This document shows positions 31,082 through 52,632 of a stretch of DNA of 64,000 bases, piece by piece. The notes beneath the pieces were generated by a model. The model had not been told where the DNA came from. It did no database searches and was given only the letters and a program-made list of their open reading frames with translations. The DNA is taken from assembly GCA_963706575.1 (NCBI GenBank), contig CAVPNL010000001.1:352001-416000 (forward strand). Direction: 5' to 3'. The translations under genes were made by a program, and so were the position numbers. This DNA is from an uncultured delta proteobacterium. Its GTDB lineage: Bacteria > Desulfobacterota > Desulfobacteria > Desulfobacterales > JAHEIW01. How positions within the stretch are numbered: position 1 is the stretch's first letter; the number at the start of each line of letters is the position of its first letter.

Positions 31082-31133
31082 CTTCCTCTGAGATCACATT
31101 CGACTGAACAGAATGAAAGTTCGGATTCGTTCG

Positions 31134-31622: not shown

Positions 31623-31677
31623 CTCACGAGGTCCTCGAATTTAGATGGATTTGCTCAAATTAACAAGGGATGAAAAG

Positions 31678-31707
31678 ACCAGGAGGGTGTAAGTCCACCC
31701 TCCTGGT
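31678..31707 (-). terminator. Strong hairpin between dctP and dctQ (attenuator or mRNA stabiliser)
   Basis: ACCAGGAGGGTG-N6-CACCCTCCTGGT, followed by CTTTT on the minus strand. Confidence 0.6.
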
Positions 31708-31758
31708 TATCTTCCGGTTTAGAGATTCTCTCAATCTTGTCGTTTAAAAGGCCTTTTT

Positions 31759-33625: not shown

Positions 33626-35086
33626 TTATGCCCTTTTTTCAGTCCCATAGCGGTATCGCAGATCATCGGTCATCACGCAGCGTCGAATCTGGGTAAATAT
33701 TCTGGGCCGGGTGTGTCCTTCGCCATTGGTGGCGATATGAAATGAAACAAATCCTTCACCGGTAACGCCAACGCCGCCGAGGCCGCAGGCCCCATTTTTA
33801 ACAAATGAGGCACAGCGCGCTTTGCTGGCCATTTTCTGGATGTTGGTAATGCTGTTGGAATGGATGGCCATGGTGTGGCCCATATTTTGCTCGGCGGCCA
33901 ATGCCCATTCGATGGCCTGATCGACATTCGCACAACGGACCAGTGGCAGGACCGGCATAATCTGTTCGGTCCAAACCAGGGGATGATTTTGGTCGGTTTC
34001 CAGAATGACGATTTGGGCATCGTTTCCCACTTCCAGGCCGATGGAGTTGAGTATGAATCCCGGCGTTTTGCCGATAAAGTCCATATTAATAACGCCCGGT
34101 TCAGCCGGTCCTTTGACTTCCTTGAAGATATGTTTGAGCAGCTTTTTGCCCTGATCCGCAGAAATTTCGTAGGCGCCGTATTTTTTTAGATGTTCTTTAA
34201 GTTGTTCCGCCGCGGATTCAACGACAAAAATTTCCTTTTCACTGGCGCAGGCGGTACAATTTGAAAAGGAAGCGCCCTGGATAATGCATTTTGCTGCACG
34301 GTCCAGATCCGCTGTTTCGTCAACCACAACCGGAGGATTACCGGGCCCACCGGCGATAACGCGTTTGCCGGTTGAGGTCGCAAAGTCGACCACCCCATGG
34401 CCGCCGGTTACCGCAATCATGCCGACGTCTGGATGGGTCATCAGCTCTTGGGCGGAGGGCACCGTCGGTTCTTCCAGGCAGCAGATGCAATTTGGCGGTC
34501 CCCCGGCGTTTACGATGGCATGGTTCAGATCCCGAATGACGCGGGCGGATACCTTCTTAGTTTTGGGGTGAGGATTATCGATTACCGTGTTGCCGCCGGA
34601 CATCATCATAATGGCATTGAAAATTATGGTGGGAGCGCCGTTGGTGACCGGATTAACCGAGGCAATCACGCCGATCGGCAGTCGTTCTATAATGGTGACA
34701 CCCTTATCACCGGCATAGACCTCGGGAGTTAGATCCTCCATTCCCGGCACATTGCAGGCAGAGCGGACCTTGGCCACATTGTCGTCCGGTTTGCCCAGCC
34801 CGGTTTCTTCAAATTCCATGCGGCCGTATTCATCAGCATTGGCCAGACCGGTTTCGCGAATGGCCTGGATGAACCTCCGGCGGTCTTCAACCGGTGCATC
34901 CAACAGTTTTTTCTGAGCGCTGACAGCCGCATTTATGCAGGTTCCCATGTCCCGGAAAACGCCGTCGCCTGCAGCCGGCTTTTTTTTAGAGGGATTTTCC
35001 ATCTGATGGTCATCGATATTCTGCTCGGCAAGCTTTGCAATAACCTTTTCCACGATTTGGGTGACAACTTTTTCATCAAAATCCAT
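33626..35086 (-). CDS. CoA-acylating aldehyde dehydrogenase (EutE/PduP family) with N-terminal encapsulation peptide
   Basis: PVTN, GPGNPPVVVDETAD, GASFSNCTACASEK, MPVLP, HTMAIHS, RRCV; N-terminus FDEKVVTQIVEKVIAKL. Confidence 0.92.
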   Translation of the reverse strand: MDFDEKVVTQIVEKVIAKLAEQNIDDHQMENPSKKKPAAGDGVFRDMGTCINAAVSAQKKLLDAPVEDRRRFIQAIRETGLANADEYGRMEFEETGLGKPDDNVAKVRSACNVPGMEDLTPEVYAGDKGVTIIERLPIGVIASVNPVTNGAPTIIFNAIMMMSGGNTVIDNPHPKTKKVSARVIRDLNHAIVNAGGPPNCICCLEEPTVPSAQELMTHPDVGMIAVTGGHGVVDFATSTGKRVIAGGPGNPPVVVDETADLDRAAKCIIQGASFSNCTACASEKEIFVVESAAEQLKEHLKKYGAYEISADQGKKLLKHIFKEVKGPAEPGVINMDFIGKTPGFILNSIGLEVGNDAQIVILETDQNHPLVWTEQIMPVLPLVRCANVDQAIEWALAAEQNMGHTMAIHSNSITNIQKMASKARCASFVKNGACGLGGVGVTGEGFVSFHIATNGEGHTRPRIFTQIRRCVMTDDLRYRYGTEKRA

Positions 35087-35140: not shown

Positions 35141-36064
35141 TCAGCTGTCGTTATAATAATCCTTATTTAGCGGATCATAATCTGCCAGCTCTTCTTTTTC
35201 CTCTGAAAAGAAATCCTGCCGTCTTCTGACACCGTCTTCAATTCTCGACAGGCGCTCGGCGGTGGCATCTTTGTCCGTGTATGCGATTTCATGAACCAGG
35301 GCACCTAAAAAGGTAATGATATGTGAAAAGGGATCAATAAATGAAAAGCCTTCCATATCGACAACGACATAGTGATCCGCCAGATTAATTATGGGTGACT
35401 TCAAGGCGTCGCTCAAGCAAACCACCTGGGCCTGATACTGTTTGGCGTACTCAATGATTTCAATGGCCCGCATGGGATAGCGCGGAAAGGCAATCACAAA
35501 CAACAGCAAGGACTTACCATGCACCGCGATGTGATCCAGATTGTCGGAGGTATAAGCCGTGTCGATCAGCACCCCTTCTTTGATTTTTTTTAAGAGATAT
35601 CCCAAATAAAAGGCCAGGGAGGCTGAGGCTTTATAGCCGACCACCAGGACCGATTCTGCCTGAAAAATCATTTGCGCAAGATTTTTTATCTCTGCTTCGG
35701 AAACCGATTTCACCATATTTTCCAGGTTCGTTACCGTGTTTTGGCTGTACGCGTTTAACGTGTTAGTTGTTTTGGTTTCCGGGTCAACTTTCAGCAGCCT
35801 TTCTACACTGGTCAATTCATCGCGCAGCATTCCCTTAAGATATTGCTCAAATTCACCGTAACCGTTGAAACCCAAATCCATCACGAAACGGGTGATGGTG
35901 GGCTCACTCACCTGGCATTTTTGAGCGATTTCCTTGGCGGTTGTCAAAAAAAGCCGTTTGTAATCCTCCATCATAAAGTCCGCCACCCGGCGTTTTTTGG
36001 GTGACAGGCTGGGACGAATGCGGACAATTTGTTCAAAAAGCTCTTTTCTGACGGTTTCAATCAT
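35141..36064 (-). CDS. RpiR/MurR family transcriptional regulator
   Basis: LSPKKRRVADF, VSEPTITRF..LGFNGY, SIS domain FPRYP. Confidence 0.92.
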   Translation of the reverse strand: MIETVRKELFEQIVRIRPSLSPKKRRVADFMMEDYKRLFLTTAKEIAQKCQVSEPTITRFVMDLGFNGYGEFEQYLKGMLRDELTSVERLLKVDPETKTTNTLNAYSQNTVTNLENMVKSVSEAEIKNLAQMIFQAESVLVVGYKASASLAFYLGYLLKKIKEGVLIDTAYTSDNLDHIAVHGKSLLLFVIAFPRYPMRAIEIIEYAKQYQAQVVCLSDALKSPIINLADHYVVVDMEGFSFIDPFSHIITFLGALVHEIAYTDKDATAERLSRIEDGVRRRQDFFSEEKEELADYDPLNKDYYNDS

Positions 36065-36087: not shown

Positions 36088-36708
36088 CTAGTGCTCACGC
36101 CCGGACAAGGCAGCCAGGGCTGACTCTGCCGCCAGTTTACCACTGAGGACATCCGATGGCTCACCGGCGAAGTAAACCCGGCCGCTGGCACCATATACCG
36201 TGACATGATTGAGGGTGATATTGGCTGCCTTTTCGGCTTCATTGGCAGCATATCCGGCATATCCGGCCGGGACGACTTCCAGAATATAAAGGGTTTCATC
36301 GCTTAGCGATAGACTGGCAGCCCGAAACCGGTTTACGATTTGGCTCATATGCGGATCGATTCGTTCGACGGTCTCGGTGGCTAGGATCTTGGGTTTAAGA
36401 CGGTCGGTTTCTTTGCAACCCAGATAATCCAGGATAACCTCGCCGGCCTGTTTCACATCGGCGGGCGAATCGGCGTGAACCTCCAGCATGCCATAGGTTC
36501 TTTCCACTACCAGCGCCCCGGGCCGCACATTGGACCTTTTCATGACCGCATCGGTGATTGAGTTAATCTCAATGCCCGGCGCGATTTCCACAAAAAGGGC
36601 AGCCTGACCGGTTATCGGATAATAGCCGCGTGAGGTCGAGCCGATATAACCGACCATCTGTTTTTGTAATTGATCGATGTAGGCAAATGCTCTAAGATCT
36701 ATCTTCAT
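36088..36708 (-). CDS. BMC-T shell protein, CcmP/CsoS1D-type (double-stacking)
   Basis: LRAFAYIDQLQ, VEIAPG, VERTYGMLEVH, ANEAEKAA, GASGR. Confidence 0.9.
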   Translation of the reverse strand: MKIDLRAFAYIDQLQKQMVGYIGSTSRGYYPITGQAALFVEIAPGIEINSITDAVMKRSNVRPGALVVERTYGMLEVHADSPADVKQAGEVILDYLGCKETDRLKPKILATETVERIDPHMSQIVNRFRAASLSLSDETLYILEVVPAGYAGYAANEAEKAANITLNHVTVYGASGRVYFAGEPSDVLSGKLAAESALAALSGREH

Positions 36709-36711: not shown

Positions 36712-37917
36712 TTATATGCTCTTCAGCCATTCGCGTTTGTTCGGACAGACAGCCGTTATGGTGGTACAGGCTGCATTTCCCTGACAGGCGCACTCTTTGT
36801 CGCCGCCCTTGCTGAATCGGCCGTAACAGAAATCGGTAATGGGTATCGACGGTTGACAATCCATGATCAGTTGGCTGATCAGCCGGCCGATTACCGGGGC
36901 CAATCCGAAGCCGTGGCCGCTAAAGCCGGTGGCAAAAACAAAACCGGGGACTTCTTCTGCAAAGCCTAACACCGGCAGGGCGTCTGACATCTGGGCGATA
37001 AGGCCTGACCACATCCGAATCACGTTTAAATTCTTCAGTATCGGGAAATAATCAATAACCATCTCGGAAATCGCCGGCCCGATGAAATGAAACAGCGGCT
37101 TGCCTTCGCGATGGATGAATTGTTCGGTGCCGACAAATCCTCCCCAAAAGAAGGAACCGTGTCCGGTTTGCCGGCCGTAAAACAACCCTTTGGCATGTCC
37201 GACCATCTGCTGAAATAACGGAGGGTAGGGCTCAGTAATCAGGGCCTCGGAAAATACAGGTCGCATCGGCAAATCCAGGCCGGCCATGTTGGCCACTTTT
37301 CGTCCGGCTACACCGGCGGCATCCACCACCAGGTCAGTTTCAAAAATGTGCTTATCGGTTACCACACCGCTAATTTTACTTTTTTTTAGTCGAACCTCCA
37401 TGACTTCTTCATGCGTAAAAAACCGGGCCCCGAGATTCTTGGCCTTTTTAAAAAAGCCGTAAGTGACCAAAAACGGATTGACATGACCGTCCGTGGGGCA
37501 GAAACTGGCACCGAGAACCTTCTCTCCGATATGAGGATTAATTTCCAACACCTGTTTGCGATCCAGCATCGTCAGCTCGAGTCCAACAGTCTTTTGGTTT
37601 TCTACCGACTGACGCATGGTTTCCAGCTCTTCTTCTGAAGTGCAGAGCCGCAGATTGCCCGCCCTTACATATTCCACATCCATATCCAGTTCTTCATGGA
37701 GGTGGCCGTATATCTGTATGCTTTCCATGGCCAACGGCATTTCTTTAAGATTGCGTGCAGACTGGCGTACACCACCGCCATTGCTGCCAGATGCTTCTCC
37801 ACCGATGTCTGATTTTTCAATCACCACCGGTTTCAGGCCTTCTTTGGCCAGATTGTAAGCGATGGCGCAGCCCATCACGCCTCCGCCGATTATAACTGCA
37901 TCTGCTTTTTCAGGCAT
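36712..37917 (-). CDS. FAD-dependent amine/amino-acid dehydrogenase (sarcosine oxidase beta / proline dehydrogenase beta-like)
   Basis: IIGGGVMG, ASGSNGGGVR, DGHVNP, WSG, GFSGHGFGLAP. Confidence 0.9.
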   Translation of the reverse strand: MPEKADAVIIGGGVMGCAIAYNLAKEGLKPVVIEKSDIGGEASGSNGGGVRQSARNLKEMPLAMESIQIYGHLHEELDMDVEYVRAGNLRLCTSEEELETMRQSVENQKTVGLELTMLDRKQVLEINPHIGEKVLGASFCPTDGHVNPFLVTYGFFKKAKNLGARFFTHEEVMEVRLKKSKISGVVTDKHIFETDLVVDAAGVAGRKVANMAGLDLPMRPVFSEALITEPYPPLFQQMVGHAKGLFYGRQTGHGSFFWGGFVGTEQFIHREGKPLFHFIGPAISEMVIDYFPILKNLNVIRMWSGLIAQMSDALPVLGFAEEVPGFVFATGFSGHGFGLAPVIGRLISQLIMDCQPSIPITDFCYGRFSKGGDKECACQGNAACTTITAVCPNKREWLKSI

Positions 37918-38007
37918 CTGTTCTCCTGTTTGAAACGTCAGGAATTCAATATTCGCTATTCGTTATTCAAAATCTTTTAAAACAATTAAAGATGTGACAA
38001 TTAAAAA

Positions 38008-38688
38008 CTAGCTATTGGCAAATGCGGACAACCTCAGCGGCCGTACCGGCCCTCTGGCGGTTGTCGGCTCTATTTCGGCAAGGCTCAATCCCAATTCTTC
38101 AGCCAGGATCTGGCTTACAAGGCGCTGACAGGTTTGCCCCTGGCACAGCCCCATTCCGGCCCGGGTGATCCGTTTAATGCCGTTTAGGGTTTGCATGCCA
38201 TTGCGAATGGCGTCTTTAATTACGCCTTTGGTAATTTCTTCACAGCGGCATATGATCATATCATCGTCATCCGATGGGATTTGTCGGGATTCAGTCGATG
38301 TCTCCTTTTTACGATTCGGTTTATCCGGTTCACGCCCTTTCAGCTGTTTAATTCGTTCGACAACCCGATTGGCAAGGGCCTCGATGGCTTCTTCTGAGAA
38401 TTGGCCACCCGATATGCCCGGCGCATGGCTTTTCGATGGTCTGTTAGCAGAGGTAGGCCGGGTAGATCGGTGCATCTTTGCTTTTTTACCAGCCGGCTGT
38501 TTAGCCGGCTGAATTGCCGCAGTCAGCGATACGGCTCCTGGAGGCGTGGTTTTGATGTGGAGCTGATGTTCTTTAATCAAATCAGCGGCGGCGGCAGATA
38601 GAATTGCACCCTCGGGAACCTCAATTTCTTTGTTAGCGCCATCGATGATTTGTTTTACCTGCTGTGAGAATATGAATACACGGGCCAT
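38008..38688 (-). CDS. BFD-like [2Fe-2S] subunit with encapsulation peptide and EutQ-N-like module
   Basis: ICRCEEIT...GMGLCQGQTC...RGPVRP; internal amphipathic helix SEEAIEALANRVVERIKQL. Confidence 0.85.
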   Translation of the reverse strand: MARVFIFSQQVKQIIDGANKEIEVPEGAILSAAAADLIKEHQLHIKTTPPGAVSLTAAIQPAKQPAGKKAKMHRSTRPTSANRPSKSHAPGISGGQFSEEAIEALANRVVERIKQLKGREPDKPNRKKETSTESRQIPSDDDDMIICRCEEITKGVIKDAIRNGMQTLNGIKRITRAGMGLCQGQTCQRLVSQILAEELGLSLAEIEPTTARGPVRPLRLSAFANS

Positions 38689-38700
38689 TTAGTTCTCCCT

Positions 38701-39318
38701 TTATGGTGTTCGACCTTTTATCTTTCCAAGTGTTTCGACGACTTTTTGGGCTGCCGCCTGAATTTCCGACTCGGTGCCGGCCATATAGATGCGTCCGGAA
38801 GCCCCAAAAAAACGGATATCAACCAGCCGGACACCGCAATGCTTCTCAGCTTCATTGGCAGCGATGGATGAATAGGCCGCCGGTGTGACCTCCAGCAGAT
38901 AGACATCGTCACCGCCTAAAATCAACATTCCCTTGCTGTTGCGGTTGATAATCACCGCCTGGTATGGATCAATTTTATTGATGATGCTGGTTGCCAGAAC
39001 ACTGGGCGCCAGACGTTCTTCCTCTTTGAGCCCCAGCTCATCCAATATCATGCTGCCGGCATGCAGAACTTCTGCCTGTTCAAACGAGTGGATTTCCAGC
39101 ATGCCATAGCGTCTTTCAACAATCATTTCCCCGGGTTTTGAATTGGTGGCCTTGAGCGCAATATCCGACAAGCGGTTGATCTCGACGCCGGGGACGACCT
39201 CCACGAAAAGGGAAGCCATGCCCTCTACAGAAAGAAAACCTCGACAGGCGCTTGCAAACAAAGATGCAAACTGGGGTTGCAACCGATCCAGATAGCAATA
39301 GGCTCTGAGTTCAGCCAT
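38701..39318 (-). CDS. Second CcmP/CsoS1D-type BMC-T shell protein
   Basis: ELRAYCYLDRLQPQ, VERRYGMLEIH, ANEAEK, GASGR. Confidence 0.9.
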   Translation of the reverse strand: MAELRAYCYLDRLQPQFASLFASACRGFLSVEGMASLFVEVVPGVEINRLSDIALKATNSKPGEMIVERRYGMLEIHSFEQAEVLHAGSMILDELGLKEEERLAPSVLATSIINKIDPYQAVIINRNSKGMLILGGDDVYLLEVTPAAYSSIAANEAEKHCGVRLVDIRFFGASGRIYMAGTESEIQAAAQKVVETLGKIKGRTP

Positions 39319-39360
39319 TCATTTGTCTCCTTGGTAGCAGTTTAATATCTCCATCTAATG

Positions 39361-39516
39361 TTGATAATCTCGTAAAAAGTTAGAAAAGCAGCTGTTTACG
39401 AGTGTGTTTTGTATTTGGTGTTTAGTGTTTAGTATTCTAACATGCCGATATAGCATCATCTATTTCATGCCAAACACCAAACACTTGATGAATTCGGCTT
39501 TTTACGAATTCATCAA
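39361..39516. mobile_element. MITE-like element
   Basis: Imperfect terminal inverted repeats TTGATAATCTCGTAAAAAG / CTTTTTACGAATTCATCAA; internal 7-nt-period repeats. Confidence 0.6.
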
Positions 39517-40349
39517 TGTTCAGTCTTAATAATTTGAATCGAATACTCCTTCGCTAAATCCCGGGCCAATGGTGTCACGATTCCCCCGGGTGCCAGCGTG
39601 ATTGCATTCTGGTTTTCAGCAACGGCCATATAAATTACTTTGGCTGTAACCAGTTTTATCGCACCGGTGCTATTTTCTGTTTGCGTTTTAATTGTTGCGG
39701 GTGAAGGGATGGGGACGGTTTTGGCTGGTTTAATACCGGATAACATTTTCTGAAATGTTGAATGTAATTGATCTGTTGGACAAAAAACCATCCCGAAGCT
39801 CTCAAGTTTTCTTAAAATTTGGTCGATTTCACTGCGCAGGGCTTCATTGGCAAGGATGTCACACACCAGAAATCCGTCGCTGGCAGCCAGAACCCGTTTG
39901 CCCTGCAGCAATGCGGTGAACACGATACCGGACTCTTGATCATCACAGATCAGGCTGGCGATTTTGGCGGCTGTTTTCAGACAGAAGGTGGGTAAAACCA
40001 GTATATCGGCCTTTTGCAAAGCCTTCTCCAACCCCGCCGGTTTGACCGTATCCAAAATACATTTGATGCCGGCGCCCTCTTTGACATCGGCGCCGCAAAC
40101 CCAGGAACGGGCAGATTCAACCGTATAGACGCTGGACCGGCGGGCGGTCTCTTCTATTTTTTGGATCTGTGCAAGTGCCTGATCCAATTTGCGGACACCG
40201 GCATGAAAAATATTTAATACCGCCGGCCCTTTGCCGGGGGAATCTACAGGTCGGGACGGCGGGTTGCGCGATGATCCTTTGGGCAAGCCGGTTTCGTTGA
40301 GAACCTGTCGAACGATTTTGCTGATTTCTTTTTTGAGCTTATCCGTCAT
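39513..40349 (-). CDS. BMC-associated flavoprotein-like protein with N-terminal encapsulation peptide
   Basis: LKKEISKIVRQVLNE; ADILVLP..KTAAKIA..ALLQGKRVLA; C-terminal GIVTPLARDLA. Confidence 0.75.
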   Translation of the reverse strand: MTDKLKKEISKIVRQVLNETGLPKGSSRNPPSRPVDSPGKGPAVLNIFHAGVRKLDQALAQIQKIEETARRSSVYTVESARSWVCGADVKEGAGIKCILDTVKPAGLEKALQKADILVLPTFCLKTAAKIASLICDDQESGIVFTALLQGKRVLAASDGFLVCDILANEALRSEIDQILRKLESFGMVFCPTDQLHSTFQKMLSGIKPAKTVPIPSPATIKTQTENSTGAIKLVTAKVIYMAVAENQNAITLAPGGIVTPLARDLAKEYSIQIIKTEH

Positions 40350-40388
40350 AATTTCCTTAAAATCTCCGGCAAACGGCTGCCGAATTCA

Positions 40389-41228
40389 TCACGCCTGCAT
40401 ATTGGCGGTCGCCGTATCCCGGCAGGATAACGCGATGCCGAAGGGGGTGATGAATTGAGGAATATGCGGCCGAAACGTTTCCATACCGATGTTTTCGGCG
40501 ACGATATCTGCAAAGCCCCGCAATTCACATGTTCCGCCCACCAGACAGACTTTTTCCAGATTATCGAATTCTGCTAAATAGGAAGCCGCGATACTGGCAA
40601 TTTTTTCGATAACCGGCTGAACGATTGCCAGAACTTCCCCGTTTTTCTGGGGATTCGTTTTTATTTTCTCAGCCTGTTCGTAGTTGATTTTTTGATTGCC
40701 CGCCAAAACGAGAGACAGATGAACACCTCCTGTGGCTTCGTCATTGGAATAAATGACTTCTCCATTTTTGATAACGGCAACTCCTGTTGTGCCGCCGCCC
40801 ACATCGACAATGGCCCCGTTTTCGATTTTAAGGACCTGATTGGCGGCTGTGGGCTCATCCAAGACATTGAGCACTTCCAAACCGACCCCCTCCAGGATAT
40901 GGGTGGTGGTTCTAAGGTTGGCGGATTCGGTCTGCGGCGGGTAGGATGTCGCGCCTCTTTCGATCGGCACAGGGCTGTGCTTTCTGATTTCTTCCATCAG
41001 CTCGCGGACGGTGTTCAAGGCCCCGACATAATCGACAATCATACCGCTGCGGGCGACTTCGGTCCGGCGCATGTTGGCCGCCCGCGGCGTGCCGGTTTCA
41101 TCGATAATGATGGCGATGGTTTTATAGGTTCCCACATCAACACCGGCATATAACTGCTCGGCACCGGCAAAATTCCAGTTGTCCGGCCGGTTTACAAGTT
41201 GGCTGAGCATGTTGATCGCATCCGTCAT
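40389..41228 (-). CDS. eutJ: EutJ actin/Hsp70-like BMC protein
   Basis: GVDVGT, VDYVGA, DEPTAAN, DVGGGTTG, EATGGVH, LVGGT, TPFGIA. Confidence 0.93.
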   Translation of the reverse strand: MTDAINMLSQLVNRPDNWNFAGAEQLYAGVDVGTYKTIAIIIDETGTPRAANMRRTEVARSGMIVDYVGALNTVRELMEEIRKHSPVPIERGATSYPPQTESANLRTTTHILEGVGLEVLNVLDEPTAANQVLKIENGAIVDVGGGTTGVAVIKNGEVIYSNDEATGGVHLSLVLAGNQKINYEQAEKIKTNPQKNGEVLAIVQPVIEKIASIAASYLAEFDNLEKVCLVGGTCELRGFADIVAENIGMETFRPHIPQFITPFGIALSCRDTATANMQA

Positions 41229-41779
41229 AAAATACTCCTGGAAATTTCATCAGTGGGCGAGGGGATTACCACATGGCTCAAAACCAACCCGGTGCCTTCC
41301 AGAATATCAATGCCGGCTTCTACCGCCGCCTCTACCGAATCCACACTGCCGGTTAAATATAAAAATGACTTTCCGCCCAGGCCGGTGGCGCAACGTATTT
41401 CAATGATTTCGACATTCGCCGCTTTAACTCCGGCATCGGCGGCCATAATCGAAGAGGCCACCGAGAATGTTTCAATAATTCCCAGTGAATCGACGCGTTT
41501 AATCCTGGTGGTCGCGGTGATGGCTGCAAATATGGAAGCATGCACATTGGGAATCACGAAATCATCTACCAGAAATTCCCCGGCCACCGCCTTGCCCACT
41601 TCATTTGCGCGTTCGATAGAGTCCACATCGCCGGAAACCATCACCATGTATTTTCCGGCGCAAATGGGTTGGGCGAAAACCAGCTCGACATCGGCCGCTT
41701 TCAGCATTTCATCGCCGGCCGCCACGCCCTTGGCGATACTGTTCAGTTCGATCATGGCAATTGCTTTGAGCTCTTCCAT
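41225..41779 (-). CDS. PduT-like tandem BMC shell protein
   Basis: IELNSIAKG..DEMLK, PICAGKY, GLGGK, VIPSP. Confidence 0.9.
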   Translation of the reverse strand: MEELKAIAMIELNSIAKGVAAGDEMLKAADVELVFAQPICAGKYMVMVSGDVDSIERANEVGKAVAGEFLVDDFVIPNVHASIFAAITATTRIKRVDSLGIIETFSVASSIMAADAGVKAANVEIIEIRCATGLGGKSFLYLTGSVDSVEAAVEAGIDILEGTGLVLSHVVIPSPTDEISRSIL

Positions 41780-41791
41780 TTTTTATATCCG

Positions 41792-43129
41792 TCAGCGGGA
41801 TTGGATTACAATTTGTTTATCATCGACAGCTGATACGGTTCCATCGATACTGGCATGCACCCTGGCACCCAGGGCGCCTTCGGGAATTTCGCCGAGCAGG
41901 TCACCTTTTTGTACACGATCACCTTCGGCGACGACAGGAAGCGCGGGTTCTCCAAGATGCTGGTTTAAAAGAATTTTAACCTGTCTGATCTTGATTTCAT
42001 CTGGAAAAAACGCCGGATGGGTATCATATTTCATGACTTCCAGACGCTCCATCAGTCTTCGAAGAGGCACCTTACGGTTGTCGAAAAACGGCGACACCCG
42101 GTATGTTTCACGTTTGGCCTCGCGTTTAACGCCTTCTGCCAGGCATTTTTGCTTCAACACCGCGTTGATTTCCCGGGGCGAGAGCATCATGGGGCAGGCG
42201 AATTTTTCGCAAACGCCGCATTCCGAACAAATCAAAGCATCTTCCAGAATTTCTCCGTTCATTCCGGGCTTATACGCCAGGTGTCGCATGATCTTATGGG
42301 GCTCAAGCGAGTGCCCGATTAAATTGCGCGGGCAAAGATCCGTGCAGCGGGAGCACTGGGTACAGGCGGACTTGGCGATAAAGCGCATGCGTTCAATGTC
42401 TTTTTGTTTATCTCTGATGATATTGTGCTCCGGCGGCAATACAATAATGCCGCTCGTTGTTTTGGTTACCGGTTCCTGCTCACCAGTGAGCACCTTGCCC
42501 ATCATGGGGCCGCCCCTCACGATTCCATAATCGGGGATAAGGGAACCGCCGGCCAGCTGGATGACCTCGTCGACAGGTGTACCGATGGGCACCTTGCAGA
42601 CCATCGGGGTGCGAACCTCTCCGCAAACCGTTAGAAAGCGTTCGGTTACCGGCTGCTGCGTCATGGCGTGCGAGACATTTAACAGAGATTCAACATTGCA
42701 AACCACTGCCAGAACATTCAGCGGGATACCGCCCTCTGGGACAACGTGGCCGATGACTTCATTGACTAAAATAAACTCATCACCTGCCGGGTAATAGTCA
42801 TCCAGTTCATAAACATCGATATGAGGGGCGTAACCGTTGCCGGCAATTTTACTTTTAAGGATTTCAAGGGCCCGCTGGTGTTTTGACTTAACGCAAACCG
42901 TGCCTTTACCGGCATTGGTGCAATCCATTACGGTGCTCAGACCGTTTAAAATGAGATCGGTGTGATGTTCGAGCAGATGCGGATCACTTACGAGCAGCGG
43001 CTCACAGGAGGCTCCGTTTGCCAGTACCTGTTCGACTTCAAACTGCAGCTTCACGTGCGTCGGAAATCCGGCGCCCCCAGCACCAACAACACCGGCAGCC
43101 CGGATCTTATCGACAATATCTGCTCTCAT
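41792..43129 (-). CDS. PduS / RnfC-like Fe-S flavoprotein
   Basis: GVVGAGGAGFPTHVK, CEPLL, GGPMMG, CTQCSRCTDLCP, CSECGVCE..ACP. Confidence 0.92.
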   Translation of the reverse strand: MRADIVDKIRAAGVVGAGGAGFPTHVKLQFEVEQVLANGASCEPLLVSDPHLLEHHTDLILNGLSTVMDCTNAGKGTVCVKSKHQRALEILKSKIAGNGYAPHIDVYELDDYYPAGDEFILVNEVIGHVVPEGGIPLNVLAVVCNVESLLNVSHAMTQQPVTERFLTVCGEVRTPMVCKVPIGTPVDEVIQLAGGSLIPDYGIVRGGPMMGKVLTGEQEPVTKTTSGIIVLPPEHNIIRDKQKDIERMRFIAKSACTQCSRCTDLCPRNLIGHSLEPHKIMRHLAYKPGMNGEILEDALICSECGVCEKFACPMMLSPREINAVLKQKCLAEGVKREAKRETYRVSPFFDNRKVPLRRLMERLEVMKYDTHPAFFPDEIKIRQVKILLNQHLGEPALPVVAEGDRVQKGDLLGEIPEGALGARVHASIDGTVSAVDDKQIVIQSR

Positions 43130-43419
43130 TTTTTCTTCACAGGCGCGTCGTCGACCAGTTCTAGATTATCAGCAATACCGATAACGACTGCGTCTATCGG
43201 GATCGGTGTCCCCTTGTTTAGTGCTTGCATGGCCGGTGCACCCCGGGTGACAATTACCATTTCACCGAATCCGGCGCCGACTTCATCGGCAGCAACCAGG
43301 ACGTTGCCGGCCGGTTTGAGGTCCTTTCCCAGAGGCTGGATGAACAATAGCCGTAACGCGGATATCGTATCCAGCTTCTTGGTGGACCAAACGTTTCCGA
43401 TAACTTTAGCAAGTAACAT
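43126..43419 (-). CDS. BMC-P vertex protein (EutN/CcmL)
   Basis: MLLAKVIGNVWSTKK, VAADEVGAGFGE, IDAVVIGI. Confidence 0.95.
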   Translation of the reverse strand: MLLAKVIGNVWSTKKLDTISALRLLFIQPLGKDLKPAGNVLVAADEVGAGFGEMVIVTRGAPAMQALNKGTPIPIDAVVIGIADNLELVDDAPVKKK

Positions 43420-43469
43420 TCTGATGACCCTCCAGCCTCCGAGTAAACATTAACTTTCGATCGGGATTT

Positions 43470-43781
43470 CTATTTAAGATGTTCGGCTTCCTCGATGGCT
43501 TTAAGGCTGGCTTTGACATCAGCGATATCGCCAAAAATTCCGATCATGGTTACATGCTGCGGGCAAATCCCCTTCAGGTCGAAAACACGCACCGAAGCCG
43601 CTTTTTCGGCAACATCAGCGGCTGCGATCATGTCGACCACTTTTCCCTGAATGAGTCCAACAGCTGAATAAGGGACCTCAGCCTCGGATAAGATTTTTTT
43701 CCCGACGGCACCAACACGCTGTCTGAGAAATTCAAAGACTCCCGGGGAAGGATGGGAAATTAAATGGGTACTAAATGCCAT
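43470..43781 (-). CDS. GrpU-like BMC-H shell protein (GxCPQ Fe-S motif)
   Basis: AVGLIQG, AADVAEKAA, GICPQH, GDIADV; ATG at 43781 after GAGGT. Confidence 0.85.
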   Translation of the reverse strand: MAFSTHLISHPSPGVFEFLRQRVGAVGKKILSEAEVPYSAVGLIQGKVVDMIAAADVAEKAASVRVFDLKGICPQHVTMIGIFGDIADVKASLKAIEEAEHLK

Positions 43782-44024
43782 GATAGACCTCTCAGCATTC
43801 TGTTTTTTGCGAATCGTAAGCTGCGCTGCGGCGCTAAAATTATTGAATTCACCTTTTGATTCGGCATTTTCAGTGCTATTGATGACATGCGCTGATTTCA
43901 GCCGATTGCATGCAGACAAACTCCGGCCGATCTGGTCACTGGCCACGACACATTATTTTTCACGGCGTCACCGACCAAGCCGCACGCGCTTGCAGACCAA
44001 TCCGCTTCAGAACTTCCCGGAAAA

Positions 44025-44306
44025 TTATTCTTCGGCTTTCGGAATGGTATACTCGATGTCGCTGTGCGGTCTGGGGATAACGTGCACCGAAACCAGTTCG
44101 CCGACACGTTCGGCCGCTGCGCCACCGGCATCCGTGGCCGCCTTGACGGCACCGACGTCGCCGCGCACAAACACGGCAACCAGACCGCCGCCGACAAACT
44201 CTCTACCGACAAATCGTACTTTCGCTGCTTTTACCATTGCATCGGCGGCCTCAATCGCGCCGGCCAGACCTTTGGTTTCCACCATACCTAATGCTTGTTC
44301 AGCCAT
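44025..44306 (-). CDS. Major BMC-H shell protein (PduA/EutM-like)
   Basis: [34 protein letters not shown]. Confidence 0.97.
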
Positions 44307-44330
44307 TCTTGTTTACCTCCTGATTATAGA

Positions 44331-44834
44331 TTAGCGTTTCAATCGAATTGCGCGGGCCGTCATAGACCAGTCTCTGGGGATTTCTATGATAACCGTTGCG
44401 GTTTGATCCATTTTTTTCGTTTGTTTGACTGCGGTAACGACCGCTTCTCCTAATTCCTGCCCTGCTCTATCCAGGGCGATCACGGTTTCTCCTTTTTCCG
44501 GCAAGGGCCGATATTCATAAGGCATCTCGAGCGCCGCCATATTATCCGGCAGGCTTTCATCGACAATAAAGATGGCCTGGCCGGGGCAGATGGGCAAACA
44601 GCTGCGGCAGCCCACACAGTTATCTTCCGTTAGCACGGGAGGGGTGGTGATATCCTCACCGACGGTAATGGCATCATATTTACAGCTGGCTTCACAGGGA
44701 TTGCACGGAATGTCTTCCAGACATTCGAGCACGGCCACCGCACCCATGCGGCGCCGCGTCTCCGACGGTATGCCTTTGCCGTTTTTTAGTTCTTTTTGCG
44801 AAAGGAATCCGGTTTTGGTTGAATCAGCGGCCAT
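44331..44834 (-). CDS. 4Fe-4S ferredoxin subunit of the dehydrogenase complex
   Basis: ECLEDIPCNPCEASC, CVGCRSCLPICPGQAIF, PYEYRPLP. Confidence 0.88.
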   Translation of the reverse strand: MAADSTKTGFLSQKELKNGKGIPSETRRRMGAVAVLECLEDIPCNPCEASCKYDAITVGEDITTPPVLTEDNCVGCRSCLPICPGQAIFIVDESLPDNMAALEMPYEYRPLPEKGETVIALDRAGQELGEAVVTAVKQTKKMDQTATVIIEIPRDWSMTARAIRLKR

Positions 44835-45928
44835 TATGCTTGCGCTTTCATTGTGTCATTCAGGTATTGCTTGGCTTTGCCCCTGGCTTCTCCATGGCTG
44901 CCGCTGCGCAAACCGACCATGCTTTTAAGTTGCACTTCGCGCTGCTTTAAAAACTCAGGCTCATCCAGATAACCGAGTCTGCAGGCAATTGCCAGTCCGG
45001 CGATACGGCCTTCGATAATTGCCGTGCTGGCCTCTTCAATGCCGGATGCATCACCGGCCACGTAAACGCCATTAACAGATGTTTCCTGGTTCAGGTTATG
45101 TGACGGTACCTTGCCGCCTAGCACCGGAGAGTCGACGATCTGGCAGCCGGTCATTCTGAGCAACTGGTTCATGGGGTTGAGGCCGACGGCGATACATACC
45201 GTATCGACATCGAATTGTTTCTCCGTACCGTGTATCGGTTTCCAATTTTCATCCACTTCAATTATCGTGGCGCCCTCAACCCGTTCTGTGCCATGCGCTG
45301 CCTTAATCGTGTGTGACATAAAAAAAGGGACTCCGGTCCGGGCGATCTTGGCAGCGTGCACAGCGTAACCGCCGATTTCGGGTGCGGCATCGATAACGGC
45401 TGCAACCTGGCAGCCGGCTTGCAGCATCTGGTAGCTGACAATGACACCGACATTGCCCGATCCCACCATAAGAATGGCTTTGCCCGGTCGGATGCCATGG
45501 ATATTGGCCATGGTCTGAGCGGCGCCGGCGCCGATGACCCCCGGCAGGGTCCAGCCGGGGAAGGGGATCATGTTCTCTGATGCGCCGGTGGCCACCAGGG
45601 TACACTGGGCCTTTACGTGCTCAATGCGATCCCGGATCAGGACGTTGAGGGCGCCGTTTTCGTAGATACCTAAAACCACTGAATTCAAAGAAACTTCAAC
45701 GTTCAGTTCCCGGGCGTCGCTCAGGAAACTGTTGCCAATATCAAATCCGCGTTCCTTGGCGTGGTGCTCCTGGGAGCCGAAAAACTTGTGGATCTGTTTG
45801 AAAAGCTGACCGCCGGGGCGGTCGTTTTCATCATAGACGACAACCTCAACGCCGTATTTAGCAGCTTCGACGGCGGCTGCCAGTCCGGCGGGACCGGCGC
45901 CGACGCATACCATTTCACATCTTCTCAC
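44834..45928 (-). CDS. FAD/NAD(P)-dependent oxidoreductase (sarcosine oxidase alpha N-part / proline dehydrogenase alpha-like)
   Basis: GAGPAG, GGQLFKQIHKFFGS, ATGASE..PFPGWTLPGV, GSGNVG, AGD; no GcvT domain. Confidence 0.9.
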   Translation of the reverse strand: MRRCEMVCVGAGPAGLAAAVEAAKYGVEVVVYDENDRPGGQLFKQIHKFFGSQEHHAKERGFDIGNSFLSDARELNVEVSLNSVVLGIYENGALNVLIRDRIEHVKAQCTLVATGASENMIPFPGWTLPGVIGAGAAQTMANIHGIRPGKAILMVGSGNVGVIVSYQMLQAGCQVAAVIDAAPEIGGYAVHAAKIARTGVPFFMSHTIKAAHGTERVEGATIIEVDENWKPIHGTEKQFDVDTVCIAVGLNPMNQLLRMTGCQIVDSPVLGGKVPSHNLNQETSVNGVYVAGDASGIEEASTAIIEGRIAGLAIACRLGYLDEPEFLKQREVQLKSMVGLRSGSHGEARGKAKQYLNDTMKAQA

Positions 45929-46248
45929 GGCTTGCCTCGTGATAAATCCGGCCCGTTGCCATGTTGCGTTTCAACCACCATGCCTTCTCTTAGCGGTTCG
46001 ATACACGTTCGAATATTGGGTATGCCGTCCACCACCATGATACAATCGGTGCAACGGCCAATGGCACAAAACACGCCCCGGGGCTCATTTCGTTTGGTGG
46101 TGTAACGGTGGATCAGCACCCCGTTGCTTCGCAGCGCAATCGCAATCGGTTCGCCGGCAAAACCTTCCATGGTTTTGCCGTCAAAGGTGAAGCGGACCTT
46201 GGGACCTTTTTCGAACACTCCCAGAATCGGATGTTCTTCAATGCGCAT
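45925..46248 (-). CDS. (2Fe-2S)-binding subunit
   Basis: GEPIAIAL, PRGVFCAIGRCTDC, RTC. Confidence 0.9.
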   Translation of the reverse strand: MRIEEHPILGVFEKGPKVRFTFDGKTMEGFAGEPIAIALRSNGVLIHRYTTKRNEPRGVFCAIGRCTDCIMVVDGIPNIRTCIEPLREGMVVETQHGNGPDLSRGKP

Positions 46249-46283: not shown

Positions 46284-47594
46284 CTAACAGAAACCAAACA
46301 TTTCACCAAAAGTATAATTGCTGCCCACCAGAGGGATACCGGTCATGGCGCAGGCTTCAAGGGTCAAGGACCGCAGGTCTTCTCTTTCCATGCTGTGCAA
46401 TTTGGTTTTGCCGGCGGCTTTGGCAATAATGACGGCTTCATTCGTCAGGGCCTGAATATAGTTCGCAACTCGTTGGGCGGCTTTTTCGATATCGAGCCGT
46501 TGTCTTAATTGAGGATCCTGGGTTCCGATCCCGTAGGCGCAGCGGCCTTCGTGACACCGTAAACAAACCACACATCCCATGGCAACCATGGCGCCGGTGC
46601 CGATGGCAACCGCATCCGCCCCGATGGCAATGGCTTTGGCAACATCGGCGCCGTCTTTGATGCCGCCTGAGACAATCAGGCTGACTTCGTCCTTCACACC
46701 CATGTCTTCCAAGGCGCGCACGGCCTGGACCAGTGCCGGCAGGGTCGGTATTCCCAGGTTGTTCGAAGCCACCACCGGCGCAGCGCCCGTGCCGGCTTCG
46801 CCACCGTCGATGACAATACCGTCTATGCCCGCTTTGACGGCAATTTTTACGTCTTCCCAGACTCTACCCGCGGCTATTTTTAAAAATATGGGAATCTGAC
46901 TGTCGGTAATGTCCCGCAGTTCTTCCATTTTCAGGCATAGATCATCGGCTCCGAAAATATCGCCGTGGCGGGGGTGGCTGTGTAAATCAATGCCTTCCGG
47001 CAGCTGCCGGAAAGCGGCGATTTCCTTGGTGATTTTGCTGGCCATCAAATGGCCGGCCAGACCCGGTTTGGCGCCGATGCCCACAATGATTTCGAGTGCA
47101 TCGGCAGCCTCGATGTTGCGCAGGGTAAATGCCATACGACTGGGCAGAATTTGGACCACCTGCTTATAGGAATTGTCTCTTTCTTCAGGCAGCAAGCCGC
47201 CCTCACCGTTGTTGATGGATGTGCCGACGATATCGGTGGCTTTTGCCAGCGCCGTTTTGGCTTCTTTGCTCAGCGCGCCGTAAGACATTCCGGAAATCAA
47301 AATAGGCGTTTCAACGACCAGCGGTTTTTTGGCAAAACGGGCTCCCAAGACGGTCTGGGTTTTGCAATCCTCGCGATAGGTGTCGATGGACATTCGCGTC
47401 AGCTGGGAGGGCAGAACCAGTAAATCGTCAAAATTGGGGTATTTTCTGGGGGTGCCGCAGCCACGGATGCGGTGTTTGCCCATCTGGGCCTTATATTTGA
47501 CTTCTGAAATCGATTCCGGGTTCCAGACCCCTCTTTGAACATCTTTGACCCGAGGCGTTTTATCGGTTGCTTTTTTTTCGTCTTTTTTTGCCAT
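46284..47594 (-). CDS. FMN-binding glutamate-synthase-family protein, N-methylglutamate synthase C-like (MgsC/GlxD)
   Basis: FDDL, YREDC, LGARFAKKP, GMSYGALS, GAKPG, SGGIKDGADVAKA, CxxCxxC..C. Confidence 0.85.
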   Translation of the reverse strand: MAKKDEKKATDKTPRVKDVQRGVWNPESISEVKYKAQMGKHRIRGCGTPRKYPNFDDLLVLPSQLTRMSIDTYREDCKTQTVLGARFAKKPLVVETPILISGMSYGALSKEAKTALAKATDIVGTSINNGEGGLLPEERDNSYKQVVQILPSRMAFTLRNIEAADALEIIVGIGAKPGLAGHLMASKITKEIAAFRQLPEGIDLHSHPRHGDIFGADDLCLKMEELRDITDSQIPIFLKIAAGRVWEDVKIAVKAGIDGIVIDGGEAGTGAAPVVASNNLGIPTLPALVQAVRALEDMGVKDEVSLIVSGGIKDGADVAKAIAIGADAVAIGTGAMVAMGCVVCLRCHEGRCAYGIGTQDPQLRQRLDIEKAAQRVANYIQALTNEAVIIAKAAGKTKLHSMEREDLRSLTLEACAMTGIPLVGSNYTFGEMFGFC

Positions 47595-48295
47595 TATTCC
47601 TGAGCCCTTTGTTTATGGGTTGGTTTAAAAAGGACGTATTCGTGGCGGCCATAAATTTTTGGAACAATGCTTTGAAACTCGTTGACATCCTGATCGATCC
47701 CGTATTTTTGAAACAGGGGCTTTAGCACCTTTTTTTCTTTTGGATCGATGGGAACGATGCGGACGTTGCCGCCCAGCTTTTTTTCGACCGCAGGATCCAT
47801 CACATGAATAACGCCGTCATACATGGATTCCCCGATACCTTCGCCGACTTCTCCTAAAACAACGATTCGGCCGCCGAGCGTCATCTTTCCGGTCCAGCGT
47901 CCGACACTGCCGCAGACAATCAGGGTGCCGCCTTTCATGCCCCAGCCGGCTCGGCTGCCGCTGTTGCCCTTGATCACCACAGTGCCGCCGACCATCGAAG
48001 GCGCCGCATTGCTGCCGGTGTTCATTTCGACGATGATTTCGCCGGCCGTCATGTTGTCGCCCGTATACCAGCCGGTATTTCCCTCCACCACAATGGTCGG
48101 CCCTTCAAGAAATCCGCCCGTGTAAAATCCGGTGCTGCCGTGAACGGTAATCGTTCCCTTTCCGATCAAGGCCGTGGCGAAGTTGTGCATGGAATGGGGG
48201 TTGTCAATTTCAATTTGGTCTTCGGTTTTAATCAATTCCTTAAGCTTGCGATTGACTTCTCGGGAGCTCATTTTTTTTAAATCTAAACGGACCAT
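47594..48295 (-). CDS. GXGXG-domain protein, N-methylglutamate synthase B-like (MgsB/GlxC)
   Basis: Beta-helix repeats (VEGNTG, IKGNSG..GWGMKGG); start overlaps the end of the mgsA-like gene. Confidence 0.85.
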   Translation of the reverse strand: MVRLDLKKMSSREVNRKLKELIKTEDQIEIDNPHSMHNFATALIGKGTITVHGSTGFYTGGFLEGPTIVVEGNTGWYTGDNMTAGEIIVEMNTGSNAAPSMVGGTVVIKGNSGSRAGWGMKGGTLIVCGSVGRWTGKMTLGGRIVVLGEVGEGIGESMYDGVIHVMDPAVEKKLGGNVRIVPIDPKEKKVLKPLFQKYGIDQDVNEFQSIVPKIYGRHEYVLFKPTHKQRAQE

Positions 48296-52054: not shown

Positions 52055-52116
52055 CTCTTCAGGTGATCCTAAAAAACGTTATCCTTTTATTTTTGGTTTA
52101 GCCAAAAGGCATTGCG

Positions 52117-52620: not shown

Positions 52621-52632
52621 AAGGGGTTTCCA

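Follow-up and report, generated by a model that had tools for sequence, protein, structure and literature searches.

Closest described systems

Among bacterial microcompartments (BMCs), the type catalogued as MIC6 was described from three loci of anaerobic Deltaproteobacteria, and the catalogue gives no function for it (Sutter et al. 2021, PMC8217296, supplementary file 4). The defining features recorded in that supplement include a DAO-type (PF01266) protein with a C-terminal extension of about 30 amino acids (aa) that bears four Cys residues, and the MIC6 aldehyde dehydrogenase is placed there next to SPU2. A locus of this type lies in the DNA considered here, a stretch of 64,000 nucleotides (the window) from an uncultured delta proteobacterium (contig CAVPNL010000001.1 of assembly GCA_963706575.1, positions 352,001 to 416,000). 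Positions are given in window coordinates, and genes are on the minus strand unless otherwise stated. The main subject is the predicted amine dehydrogenase of this locus and, in particular, its subunit with a BFD-type [2Fe-2S] domain. The supplement's description of MIC6 lists neither the Fer2, alpha and Fer4 proteins of this enzyme nor the ligase and MgsABC-like proteins encoded upstream, and it names no encapsulation peptide (EP) or mini-domain on the PF04324 protein. In the main text of the same paper, the terms proline, sarcosine, methylamine and glutamate synthase were not found. Searches of the open literature, from which most subscription journals are absent, found no published function for MIC6 and no relevant description of N-ethylglutamate with ethylamine, of a microcompartment with N-methylglutamate or of Olavius with a microcompartment. 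MIC6 was catalogued without a signature enzyme or function, and the conserved operon offers a full candidate pathway that consists of a ligase, a synthase, a dehydrogenase, an aldehyde trap and electron export.

The N-methylglutamate pathway proceeds from a gamma-glutamyl amide, formed by GmaS, to N-methylglutamate, formed by MgsABC, from which a dehydrogenase frees formaldehyde (PMC6237917). The locus shares with this pathway the gene order ligase-mgsA-mgsB-mgsC, which is found in two of the three canonical loci fetched. Unlike the canonical pathway, the window has no SoxA with a GcvT domain, purU and folD were not seen, the beta subunit is 25–27% identical to SoxB and the ligase lacks Asp177, whereas a shell and an acylating aldehyde dehydrogenase have been added. 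The archaeal L-proline dehydrogenases (P. horikoshii alpha4beta4, 1Y56; T. profundus PdhABFX) also have a DAO-family beta subunit, an FAD/NAD alpha subunit, Fe-S parts and a free BFD-like delta subunit. In the four-subunit Thermococcus enzyme, the delta subunit resembles the last 90 residues of a fused alpha (PMC4575208, PMC4364671). The absence of a folate domain is common to the L-proline, opine, D-hydroxyproline and HCN-forming heteromers and to the window. What sets the window apart from the L-proline dehydrogenase heteromers is that five separate genes are split by a shell block, the BFD protein is extended, and the beta subunit has a four-Cys tail, falls in a clade of its own and is linked to a ligase and MgsABC.

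The Puu pathway, in which polyamines are gamma-glutamylated, is a further comparison. The Phaeobacter ETAGA cluster shares with the locus a glutamine synthetase (GS)-like ligase, RpiR, a TRAP transporter, an aldehyde dehydrogenase and often a glutamyl hydrolase-like gene, but, as presented in PMC10132767, that cluster includes no MgsABC, Fe-S flavoenzyme complex or shell. E. coli EutQ and EutT have in common with the locus an N-terminal mini-domain of 45–50 residues on a BMC protein, after which EutQ has a linker and a stretch that resembles a helix; unlike in EutQ and EutT, the mini-domain of the window is fused to a BFD dehydrogenase subunit.

A candidate pathway for MIC6

The favoured reading, to which a probability of roughly 45% is assigned, is that MIC6 oxidises the N-alkylglutamate of a non-methyl primary amine inside the shell to an aldehyde, which would be trapped as an acyl-CoA. 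In the first step, a GS-like ligase, a likely amine gamma-glutamylase (49221–50558; Gln-synt_C; neither a canonical GS nor a canonical GmaS), would use ATP to join a primary amine to glutamate. This amine is likely not methylamine and may have two or three carbons, as in ethylamine or ethanolamine. The MgsABC-like proteins would then make the N-alkylglutamate, as in the N-methylglutamate pathway, by shifting the amine to 2-oxoglutarate or glutamate. This second step is probably cytosolic, as no EP was noticed on the MgsABC-like proteins. The N-alkylglutamate may enter through two gated BMC-Tdp proteins of the CcmP clade (38701–39318 and 36088–36708; NF053796, 237 and 236 bits). By family likeness, the beta subunit would oxidise the C–N bond to leave glutamate and a free aldehyde, and the electrons would reach NAD+ on the alpha subunit by way of FMN and the Fe-S subunits. 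An aldehyde dehydrogenase of the acylating PduP/EutE type (33626–35086; NF011927 above cut-off), which has an EP-like N-terminal helix, could trap the aldehyde as an acyl-CoA. Electrons from lumen NADH could be exported by PduS/MNdh, a flavoprotein predicted to oxidise NADH (41792–43129; Complex1_51K, SLBB, Fer4 and RnfC_N), together with a BMC-Ts protein of the PduT type (41225–41779; TIGR02526 below cut-off) whose Cys40 is the likely pore Cys; these roles are transferred from PMC11626177. Such export would explain a locus in which no alcohol dehydrogenase was found.

In chemical terms, it is tentatively held, at somewhat less than even odds, that the lumen aldehyde is made by a five-subunit flavin/Fe-S C–N dehydrogenase without B12, a glycyl radical or an aldolase, that an EutQ-like module pulls this enzyme in and that it is coupled to PduS/PduT. 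If true, oxidative C–N cleavage would join the microcompartment routes to aldehydes, and the logic of the N-methylglutamate pathway would extend to other amines in anoxic sediments. It would be, as far as the literature searches reach, the first N-alkylglutamate pathway for amines other than methylamine in anaerobes, and the internal targeting module might be of use in shell engineering.

By its gene content, the locus is a MIC6 locus. The four-Cys tail of the PF01266 protein is complete in 35 of 39 related loci (reduced in three and cut by a contig end in one), and the PF04324 [2Fe-2S] protein is found in 36 of the 39. The aldehyde dehydrogenase, judged by family profile and N-terminal sequence, agrees with the MIC6 definition, and so do the shell proteins, namely, BMC-P (43126–43419; PF03319), the two CcmP-clade BMC-Tdp proteins, the BMC-Ts of the PduT type and a BMC-Hp of the GrpU type (43470–43781; weak PF00936 match; GICPQ motif). 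The order BMC-H, GrpU, BMC-P and the similar sizes of these proteins are shared with the catalogued MIC6 locus tags. A difference from the supplement's definition, which has two BMC-H proteins, is that the window contains one (44025–44306; PF00936), with one tblastn match in the 92%-complete genome. Of 34 orthologous loci, 25 have the second BMC-H and nine do not, so it varies within MIC6. The hosts also agree with the description: genomes with orthologous loci are titled Desulfobacterales, Desulfobacteraceae, Desulfatiglandales, Desulfarculia and Syntrophobacteraceae, and one bin is titled Alphaproteobacteria. In a single pattern search, the locus was found in 39 species-level genomes, and it was detected in estuary and marine-sediment runs too.

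The five dehydrogenase genes

The five genes likely form one complex of the proline/opine-dehydrogenase type, as their sequences suggest, with the parts in the order Fer2-alpha-Fer4-BFD-beta. Subunit 1 is a [2Fe-2S] protein of the gamma-subunit type (45925–46248; Fer2_4, PF13510) with the pattern Cys63-x4-Cys68-x2-Cys71-x12-Cys84, which fits the motif printed in PMC4575208. Subunit 2 is the FAD/NAD(H) alpha protein (44834–45928; 364 aa), in which neither GcvT nor BFD was found. Subunit 3 is a ferredoxin-like protein of the PdhF type with two [4Fe-4S] clusters (44331–44834; Fer4 families, eight Cys). Subunit 4 is the BFD [2Fe-2S]/SoxA-A3 protein (38008–38688; 226 aa), and subunit 5 is the catalytic FAD beta of the DAO family (36712–37917; 401 aa; PF01266), which ends in the MIC6-specific tail (36712–36810; Cys376, 378, 384 and 391). 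A shell block is inserted between the Fer4 and BFD genes, and the order is otherwise retained; the BFD gene lies upstream of the beta gene, at a distance of 90 bp.

Features shared with the proline, opine and D-hydroxyproline heteromers are the Arg-x-Trp FMN motif of beta (R301 and W303, invariant in 27 sequences), the ADP-binding motif of alpha, the Fer2 Cys motif and the Cys-x-Cys...Cys-x4-Cys arrangement of BFD, in which the spacing is 32 residues here versus 15–20 in the legend of PMC4575208. The second GSGNVG motif of alpha is followed by Asp, which points to an NAD-type nucleotide site. The parts of the complex are joined in other proteins: two of 150 alpha homologues (P0278 and P0350) hold all five parts in one chain in the order Fer2-alpha-Fer4-BFD-beta, and the first four are joined in 12 others. 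The Fer4 part is fused to alpha in many homologues, and in a paralogue of the same genome outside microcompartments (contig C14), the first four parts are fused ahead of a beta gene.

The earlier note on this DNA started from the observations that the alpha-like protein is only 364 aa long, that it lacks the folate-binding domain and that no GcvT gene is in the window. These observations hold. Pfam finds only Pyr_redox_2 (PF07992) and no GCV_T in the alpha protein, and a GCV_T domain search of 28 window proteins was negative. A profile built from six GcvT-domain stretches of the same genome, which as a control matched four of four canonical gmaS/mgs/sox loci, gave no match in any of the window's six frames, in any of 39 related loci or in any of 10 additional MIC6 stretches. 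Seven GCV_T matches lie on other contigs of the genome, including that of a 972-aa SoxA. The alpha protein aligns with positions 168–500 of the 996 in TIGR01372 (SoxA), and it is 362–367 aa long in 26 of 27 loci, the remaining one ending at a contig edge.

The conclusion drawn from these observations, that a folate domain was lost and a peptide put in its place, does not stand: alpha proteins without GcvT and free BFD subunits are the baseline of the family, and the absence of the folate domain is ordinary and not a novelty. The GcvT region of SoxA was matched by none of the 150 best alpha homologues, and Pfam GCV_T was found in none of 30 alpha homologues checked, 29 of which have at least 580 aa. 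The closest solved relative of the beta subunit is the beta subunit of the P. horikoshii L-proline dehydrogenase (1Y56_B, 195 bits; SoxB 95), and the match to TIGR01373 (SoxB) reaches 136 bits against a cut-off of 529. In a tree of 28 rows, ten MIC6 betas form one clade (100/100) apart from five SoxB rows within an open polytomy, so no sister group of the MIC6 betas can be named. The criteria for a sarcosine oxidase or N-methylglutamate dehydrogenase point away from this enzyme, which has no alpha of about 1000 aa ending in GcvT and a beta outside the SoxB clade. The identity of a truncated MgdC/SoxA was rejected, given the L-proline dehydrogenase as nearest relative of beta and the 150 alpha homologues without the SoxA GcvT region.

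The statement that BFD is usually fused to alpha and is here a separate gene before beta is right in both parts, but the split is a family trait. Of 116 near-full-length alpha homologues, 61 have a fused BFD, and 27 are stand-alone proteins of 330–400 aa. In relatives (L104–L107), stand-alone BFD genes for 93–115 aa lie directly before beta, without the extension and without shell genes in the stretch; these GcvT-less clusters branch as a sister to SoxB. Three more GcvT-less amine dehydrogenase clusters without shell genes are present in the genome of the window (C1:95057–97970, C1:161698–164847 and C14:72233–75494), and two of them adjoin methyltransferase-like genes.

The absence of GcvT permits the release of free aldehyde, as had been proposed, but does not demonstrate it, given that the products of relatives are pyrroline-carboxylate, 2-oxoacids or HCN. 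It is the neighbours, i.e., the ligase, the MgsABC-like genes and the acylating aldehyde dehydrogenase, that argue for an aldehyde, and not the absence of GcvT. The likeness to L-proline dehydrogenase raises another explanation, which is considered improbable, namely, that a free amino acid (proline-, glycine- or sarcosine-like) imported by the TRAP transporter is oxidised, while the ligase and the glutamate-synthase-like genes assimilate nitrogen, possibly with Fer2-alpha-Fer4 as their NADH module. The nearest solved relative of beta and the carboxylate-type Arg of DctP agree with it, and Fer2-alpha-Fer4 directly follows mgsC in most loci, with the redox partner of Mgs not established in PMC6237917. 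However, neither the flap Glu nor the Asp50-loop motif of GS is found in the ligase, which makes ammonia assimilation unlikely, the five-part fusions link Fer2-alpha-Fer4 to BFD-beta, and in one rearranged genome (G055) Fer2-alpha-Fer4 does not follow mgsC.

The extension of the BFD protein

The BFD protein consists of a mini-domain (residues 1–49; 38542–38688), a variable linker, a helix (residues 98–116), a second linker and the BFD domain (Fer2_BFD at 145–197, SO_alpha_A3 at 150–224). Its 140-residue BMC-type extension is tied to the microcompartment, and the alpha/beta mini-domain, which is EutQ/EutT-like, and the internal helix are, by sequence comparison, the part specific to the MIC6 enzyme. 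A linker and an amphipathic helix on a separate BFD protein had been noticed before and are present: the helix is SEEAIEALANRVVERIKQL (38341–38397), and it stands between the two variable linkers. The AlphaFold2 model of the protein (mean pLDDT 60, pTM 0.41, nine sequences) predicts a helix at 99–116, with block pLDDT values of 85 for 101–110 and 71 for 111–120, flanked by segments below 50; the mini-domain is modelled at 77–89.

Conservation was assessed in 157 sequences, comprising that of the window, those of 36 locus orthologues and the 120 that were listed out of 773 homologues, which are kin and hence not independent. Column conservation is 0.73 in the mini-domain, 0.34 in the first linker, 0.75 in the helix, 0.39 in the second linker and 0.86 in BFD. 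The helix is retained in all 157 sequences, with a mean hydrophobic moment of 0.55, and two Arg residues stand out (R112 in 157/157, R108 in 152/157). Profiles of the helix and mini-domain scored below 4 bits on all 71 BFD-bearing proteins outside the locus type, 62 of which came without genomic context.

The mini-domain connects the BFD protein with known microcompartment proteins. A first profile, made from BFD orthologues only, missed EutQ, and the match appeared after the C-termini of TIGR02536 proteins and three other fusions were added. The widened profile matches the N-termini of E. coli EutQ (E 5e-5) and EutT (E 7e-5) at about 18 bits, and the best of 500 shuffles of EutQ reached 3.5 bits. 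Further copies are found at the C-terminus of the TIGR02536-like BMC accessory protein of the locus (39513–40349), which also has an EP-like N-terminal helix, and on a third protein in three of 39 loci. This third protein has 190–200 aa with the mini-domain at its start (L058:15375, L062:14942, L066:16850, L026:7114–7719), and its second domain, without an NCBIfam match, presumably resembles the Fe-Mo-cofactor-binding fold of the NifB/NifX type. A comparison of the whole BFD model with solved folds gave nothing usable (Foldseek best E 1.2; VIA best Z 5.2), and a search of the ESM Atlas with the mini-domain returned only unnamed clusters at 0.81–0.82. The mini-domain relationship, the control sets for the helix and the recognition of the missing folate domain as a family trait are new here.

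The helix likely carries the dehydrogenase into the shell, as its conservation and its company suggest. Measured against the properties of EPs given in PMC4594438, with criteria for EPs also taken from PMC11585597, it is an amphipathic helix of 15–20 residues, it adjoins a poorly conserved linker and it occurs only on BMC-linked homologues; what it lacks is a terminal position. Its pattern is similar to the N-termini of EutC and EutE. A single EP can carry a holoenzyme, and EutBC and PduCDE are precedents for such piggy-backing (PMC4594438). In a complex model, BFD and beta scored 0.78 versus 0.01 for the best control, with partner pLDDT of at least 63 and runs agreeing in at least 50% of contacts; the mark applied is reached by 116 of 157 solved pairs and two of 215 mismatched pairs. 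The confident contacts lie in BFD 150–226, and the interface includes beta 294–303 with the Arg-x-Trp motif. This result may reflect a likeness to solved complexes instead of binding. No confident contact involves the helix or the mini-domain, which is uninformative either way. With BFD predicted to dock on beta, one tagged subunit could carry the complex into the shell.

Several observations weigh against such a role of the helix. Among 6257 18-mers from proteins of the locus, its hydrophobic moment of 0.50 ranks at the 97.8th percentile, and about 5.4% of 10,000 shuffles of its own 18 residues reach the same value, so amphipathicity on its own is borderline and conservation is the stronger signal. 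Among 331 proteins, the helix profile matched only four, which are EPs of aldehyde dehydrogenases, and these matches are weak (E 0.014–0.41); the EP of the window's own aldehyde dehydrogenase was not matched. The position of the helix, residues 98–116 of 226, is internal. Internal EPs are found in glycyl-radical enzymes. The EPs treated in PMC4594438 are terminal, and PduE, for which an EP is predicted, is not encapsulated alone according to the same review.

It may also be asked whether the mini-domain and the helix serve in oligomerisation or in docking on the outer surface, with a dehydrogenase outside that feeds aldehyde inwards. This explanation, which is compatible with any chemistry, is thought unlikely. 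The internal position, the weak likeness to the other EPs of the locus and the two Arg residues, more conserved than is typical of EPs, speak for it, and related complexes are membrane-associated dodecamers of about 360 kDa (PMC4575208). On the other hand, the extension is found only in the BMC-linked form, the mini-domain recurs on EutQ, EutT and the TIGR02536 protein, the helix pattern is EutC/EutE-like, and the release of aldehyde outside would defeat the shell. The claim of the earlier note that the helix is evidence of lumen cargo survives in part: the helix is conserved throughout and missing from the 71 controls, but it is internal and its moment is borderline against shuffles.

Linkage of the ligase and synthase-like genes to the shell locus

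The genes lie in a tightly packed run from 50558 to 33145, after which TRAP transporter genes follow. Upstream of the dehydrogenase are the MgsA/GlxB-like class II amidotransferase (48283–49183; GATase_6/7), the MgsB/GlxC-like GXGXG subunit (47594–48295; PF01493; 30–32% identical to canonical MgsB) and the MgsC/GlxD-like FMN subunit (46284–47594; PF01645). The last is 47–48% identical over its full length to canonical MgsC of gmaS-mgs-sox loci, with MgsA and MgsB at 30–34% to their counterparts. The three-gene GATase-GXGXG-FMN set beside a GS-like ligase and the high MgsC identity agree with an N-methylglutamate synthase MgsABC.

Comparative gene neighbourhoods show that the ligase-mgsABC genes belong to the microcompartment system. 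Among 28 loci with more than 9 kb upstream, alpha and Fer4 are present in 26 and mgsC in 22; in three of the six misses, mgsC lies just past the flank, and in two it accompanies MIC6 genes at another place. In a set of 30 chosen genomes (26 of the 39 locus genomes, mostly with long flanks, and four relatives), mgsA is found in all 30, and the ligase adjoins it in 28; by coordinates, the ligase-mgs genes abut the shell locus in 23 of 26. The gene order is scrambled in G055, where the genes for the ligase, mgsABC, Fer2-alpha-Fer4, the shell and aldehyde dehydrogenases nonetheless remain intermingled, and in G041 two copies of the aldehyde dehydrogenase adjoin ligase-mgsABC. Two further samples, 40 relatives and 300 genomes of the phylum, were not chosen by feature. 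Among the relatives, an mgsC orthologue occurs in eight of nine with an extended BFD and in none of the 31 others, and the ligase in seven of the nine. In the phylum sample, mgsC and Tdp1 orthologues occur in the same three genomes (two genera), and two genomes with canonical gmaS/mgs and a GcvT-bearing SoxA of about 1000 aa have no Tdp match.

The substrate and the competing routes

The ligase scores below the cut-offs of TIGR00653, TIGR03105 and NF045547 (313 bits versus 470 for TIGR03105, the GmaS family) and is 31–32% identical to GmaS. It departs from canonical GS in the flap, where Phe stands in place of Glu (F[AC]P), and in the Asp50 loop, where the FDG motif has given way to another sequence. 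In numbering transferred by alignment, the positions of Glu179, Glu186 and Asn188 of GmaS are retained, and Asn replaces Asp177 and Tyr replaces Gln175 in all 27 ligase orthologues that have the motif, drawn from 30 loci; the residue roles, including that of the catalytic Asp177, are taken from PMC7948447. These replacements suggest an amine other than ammonia or methylamine as the substrate. Searches of the ESM Atlas with the ligase gave generic GS-family clusters only, and the plasmid neighbourhoods of its relatives name no amine. For the aldehyde dehydrogenase, the nearest solved chain is 5JFL, the Cys aligned to the modified residue of 5JFN is retained, and the identity to E. coli EutE is 44%. 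Sulfoacetaldehyde as the aldehyde is weakly disfavoured (SauS 150 bits versus 525).

Methylamine is argued against by the Asn at Asp177, by the absence of purU, folD and GcvT from what was seen in the locus, by a separate SoxA-GcvT system in the genome and by the placing of the MIC6 aldehyde dehydrogenase next to SPU2 in PMC8217296. An anaerobic N-methylglutamate pathway, in which formaldehyde is freed into the shell instead of onto tetrahydrofolate and becomes formyl-CoA, looks quite unlikely. It has in its favour the high MgsC identity and the same gene order, and formaldehyde is a plausible reason for a shell, with the N-methylglutamate dehydrogenase being described as formaldehyde-yielding in PMC6237917. 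Against this stand the low identity of the ligase to GmaS, the beta outside the SoxB/MgdA-type clade, the PduP/EutE-like aldehyde dehydrogenase, and the folate-linked SoxA/GcvT and methyltransferase-like genes located elsewhere in the genome.

A route like Puu or Ipu was also considered. Here the ligase would serve only to mask one amino group of its substrate (a diamine, an amino alcohol or an amino acid), and beta would form an aldehyde in the shell by oxidising the distal end of the gamma-glutamyl amide. The glutamyl group would be taken off by a class I glutamine amidotransferase, and the nitrogen would be regained through MgsABC. Such a route would be allowed by the class I amidotransferase, which is present in 11 of 39 loci and beside further loci too; this gene is not in the window operon, however, and was not seen in the other 28, some of which are cut short. 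The ethanolamine cluster of PMC10132767, with RpiR, TRAP, a gamma-glutamylase, dehydrogenases and a gamma-glutamylglycine hydrolase, is a parallel, and the haloarchaeal match of the ligase adjoins a class I amidotransferase and aminotransferases. Set against these parallels, mgsABC follows the ligase almost everywhere, in the canonical N-methylglutamate order. On balance, the odds given to this route are low.

The oxidation of an N-alkylglutamate of a non-methyl amine remains preferred, with a number of points on the other side. Only one enzyme of the family, nopaline dehydrogenase, is a precedent for an N-substituted glutamate, and it cleaves on the glutamate side, releasing arginine and no aldehyde (PMC4575208). 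GmaS uses ethylamine nearly as well as methylamine (PMC7948447), so the change at Asp177 does not single out C2 amines. In comparisons with proteins annotated on plasmids, identity does not exceed 38% for the ligase and 36% for beta, and with no close characterised relative of any component, the substrate cannot be read from the sequence. The solute imported by the TRAP transporter may be a carboxylate and not a bare alkylamine, since DctP keeps the Arg at the carboxylate-binding position in 11 of 12 sequences (role from PMC4646407); a comparison of DctP with solved structures named no ligand (best match the lactate-binding 2ZZV). PTAC was not found in the 92%-complete genome, which leaves CoA recycling unexplained. 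With regard to linkage, the co-occurring genomes are kin, some of the three in the phylum sample may repeat earlier ones, and one genome with an extended BFD (G008, 87% complete) has no ligase or mgsC match.

Other genes of the locus and its relatives

The remaining genes of the run include EutJ (40389–41228; NF011660 above cut-off), an RpiR-family regulator (35141–36064; HTH_6 and SIS) and a Rid-family protein (33145–33564; PF01042), which is present in 27 of 39 loci. In the Rid protein, RPVIT stands at the place of the catalytic Arg of RidA, and we assume from this motif that it may not be an imine deaminase. The TRAP transporter DctP-Q-M (29774–32816) follows, with DctP in 20 of 39 loci.

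Two genes are frameshifted in the assembly: mgsA has one extra base near 48905, and dctP misses one near 32773. Intact frames of both are found in near-identical contigs from three of three DNA sequencing runs, and mgsA is intact, at about 299 aa, in 28 of 30 compared genomes (one broken, one partly masked). The frameshifts are likely assembly errors, with a private lesion of the strain also being compatible; pseudogenisation is disfavoured by the contigs that retain both frames. An RNA run (X18) yielded short contigs over 13 of 30 bins and 5% of words and was not usable as evidence of expression.

A dispersed repeat of about 170 bp lies at 39340–39520, between the TIGR02536-like gene and the first Tdp gene, with 36 matches in the genome, of which about ten are nearly complete. 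It is partly or wholly missing from close strains and thus resembles a small mobile insertion. After the TRAP genes comes a molybdoenzyme of the DMSO reductase family (27106–29364); a gene 42–44% identical to it lies near only two of the 39 loci, so it is probably outside the system. On the plus strand (50942–54177), a ketopantoate-reductase-like gene diverges from the promoter region of the ligase and is followed by V4R and acyl-CoA ligase genes; neighbours like this set occur upstream in at least one relative (L113).

Many loci contain a second aldehyde dehydrogenase (L043, L046, L063, L071, L072, L025, L027–L029, L031, L110 and L111), which is about 57% identical and has an EP-like N-terminus and the His motif RHTIVFHS. 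An amidohydrolase of 570–585 aa, which could free an amine from an amide, is encoded downstream in nine of 39 loci (e.g., L066:15068–16825), in some of them partially. The locus is also present in a worm symbiont, Olavius sp. associated proteobacterium Delta 1 (L070), for which published proteomes presumably exist. The locus of G023 is divided into two parts that lie about 2.9 Mb from each other (C1:4296000–4316000 and 1392000–1412000), with masked sequence at the break, and this division may stem from an assembly join; after the first part come a 4-aminobutyrate aminotransferase gene and one that resembles a dimethylamine methyltransferase gene.

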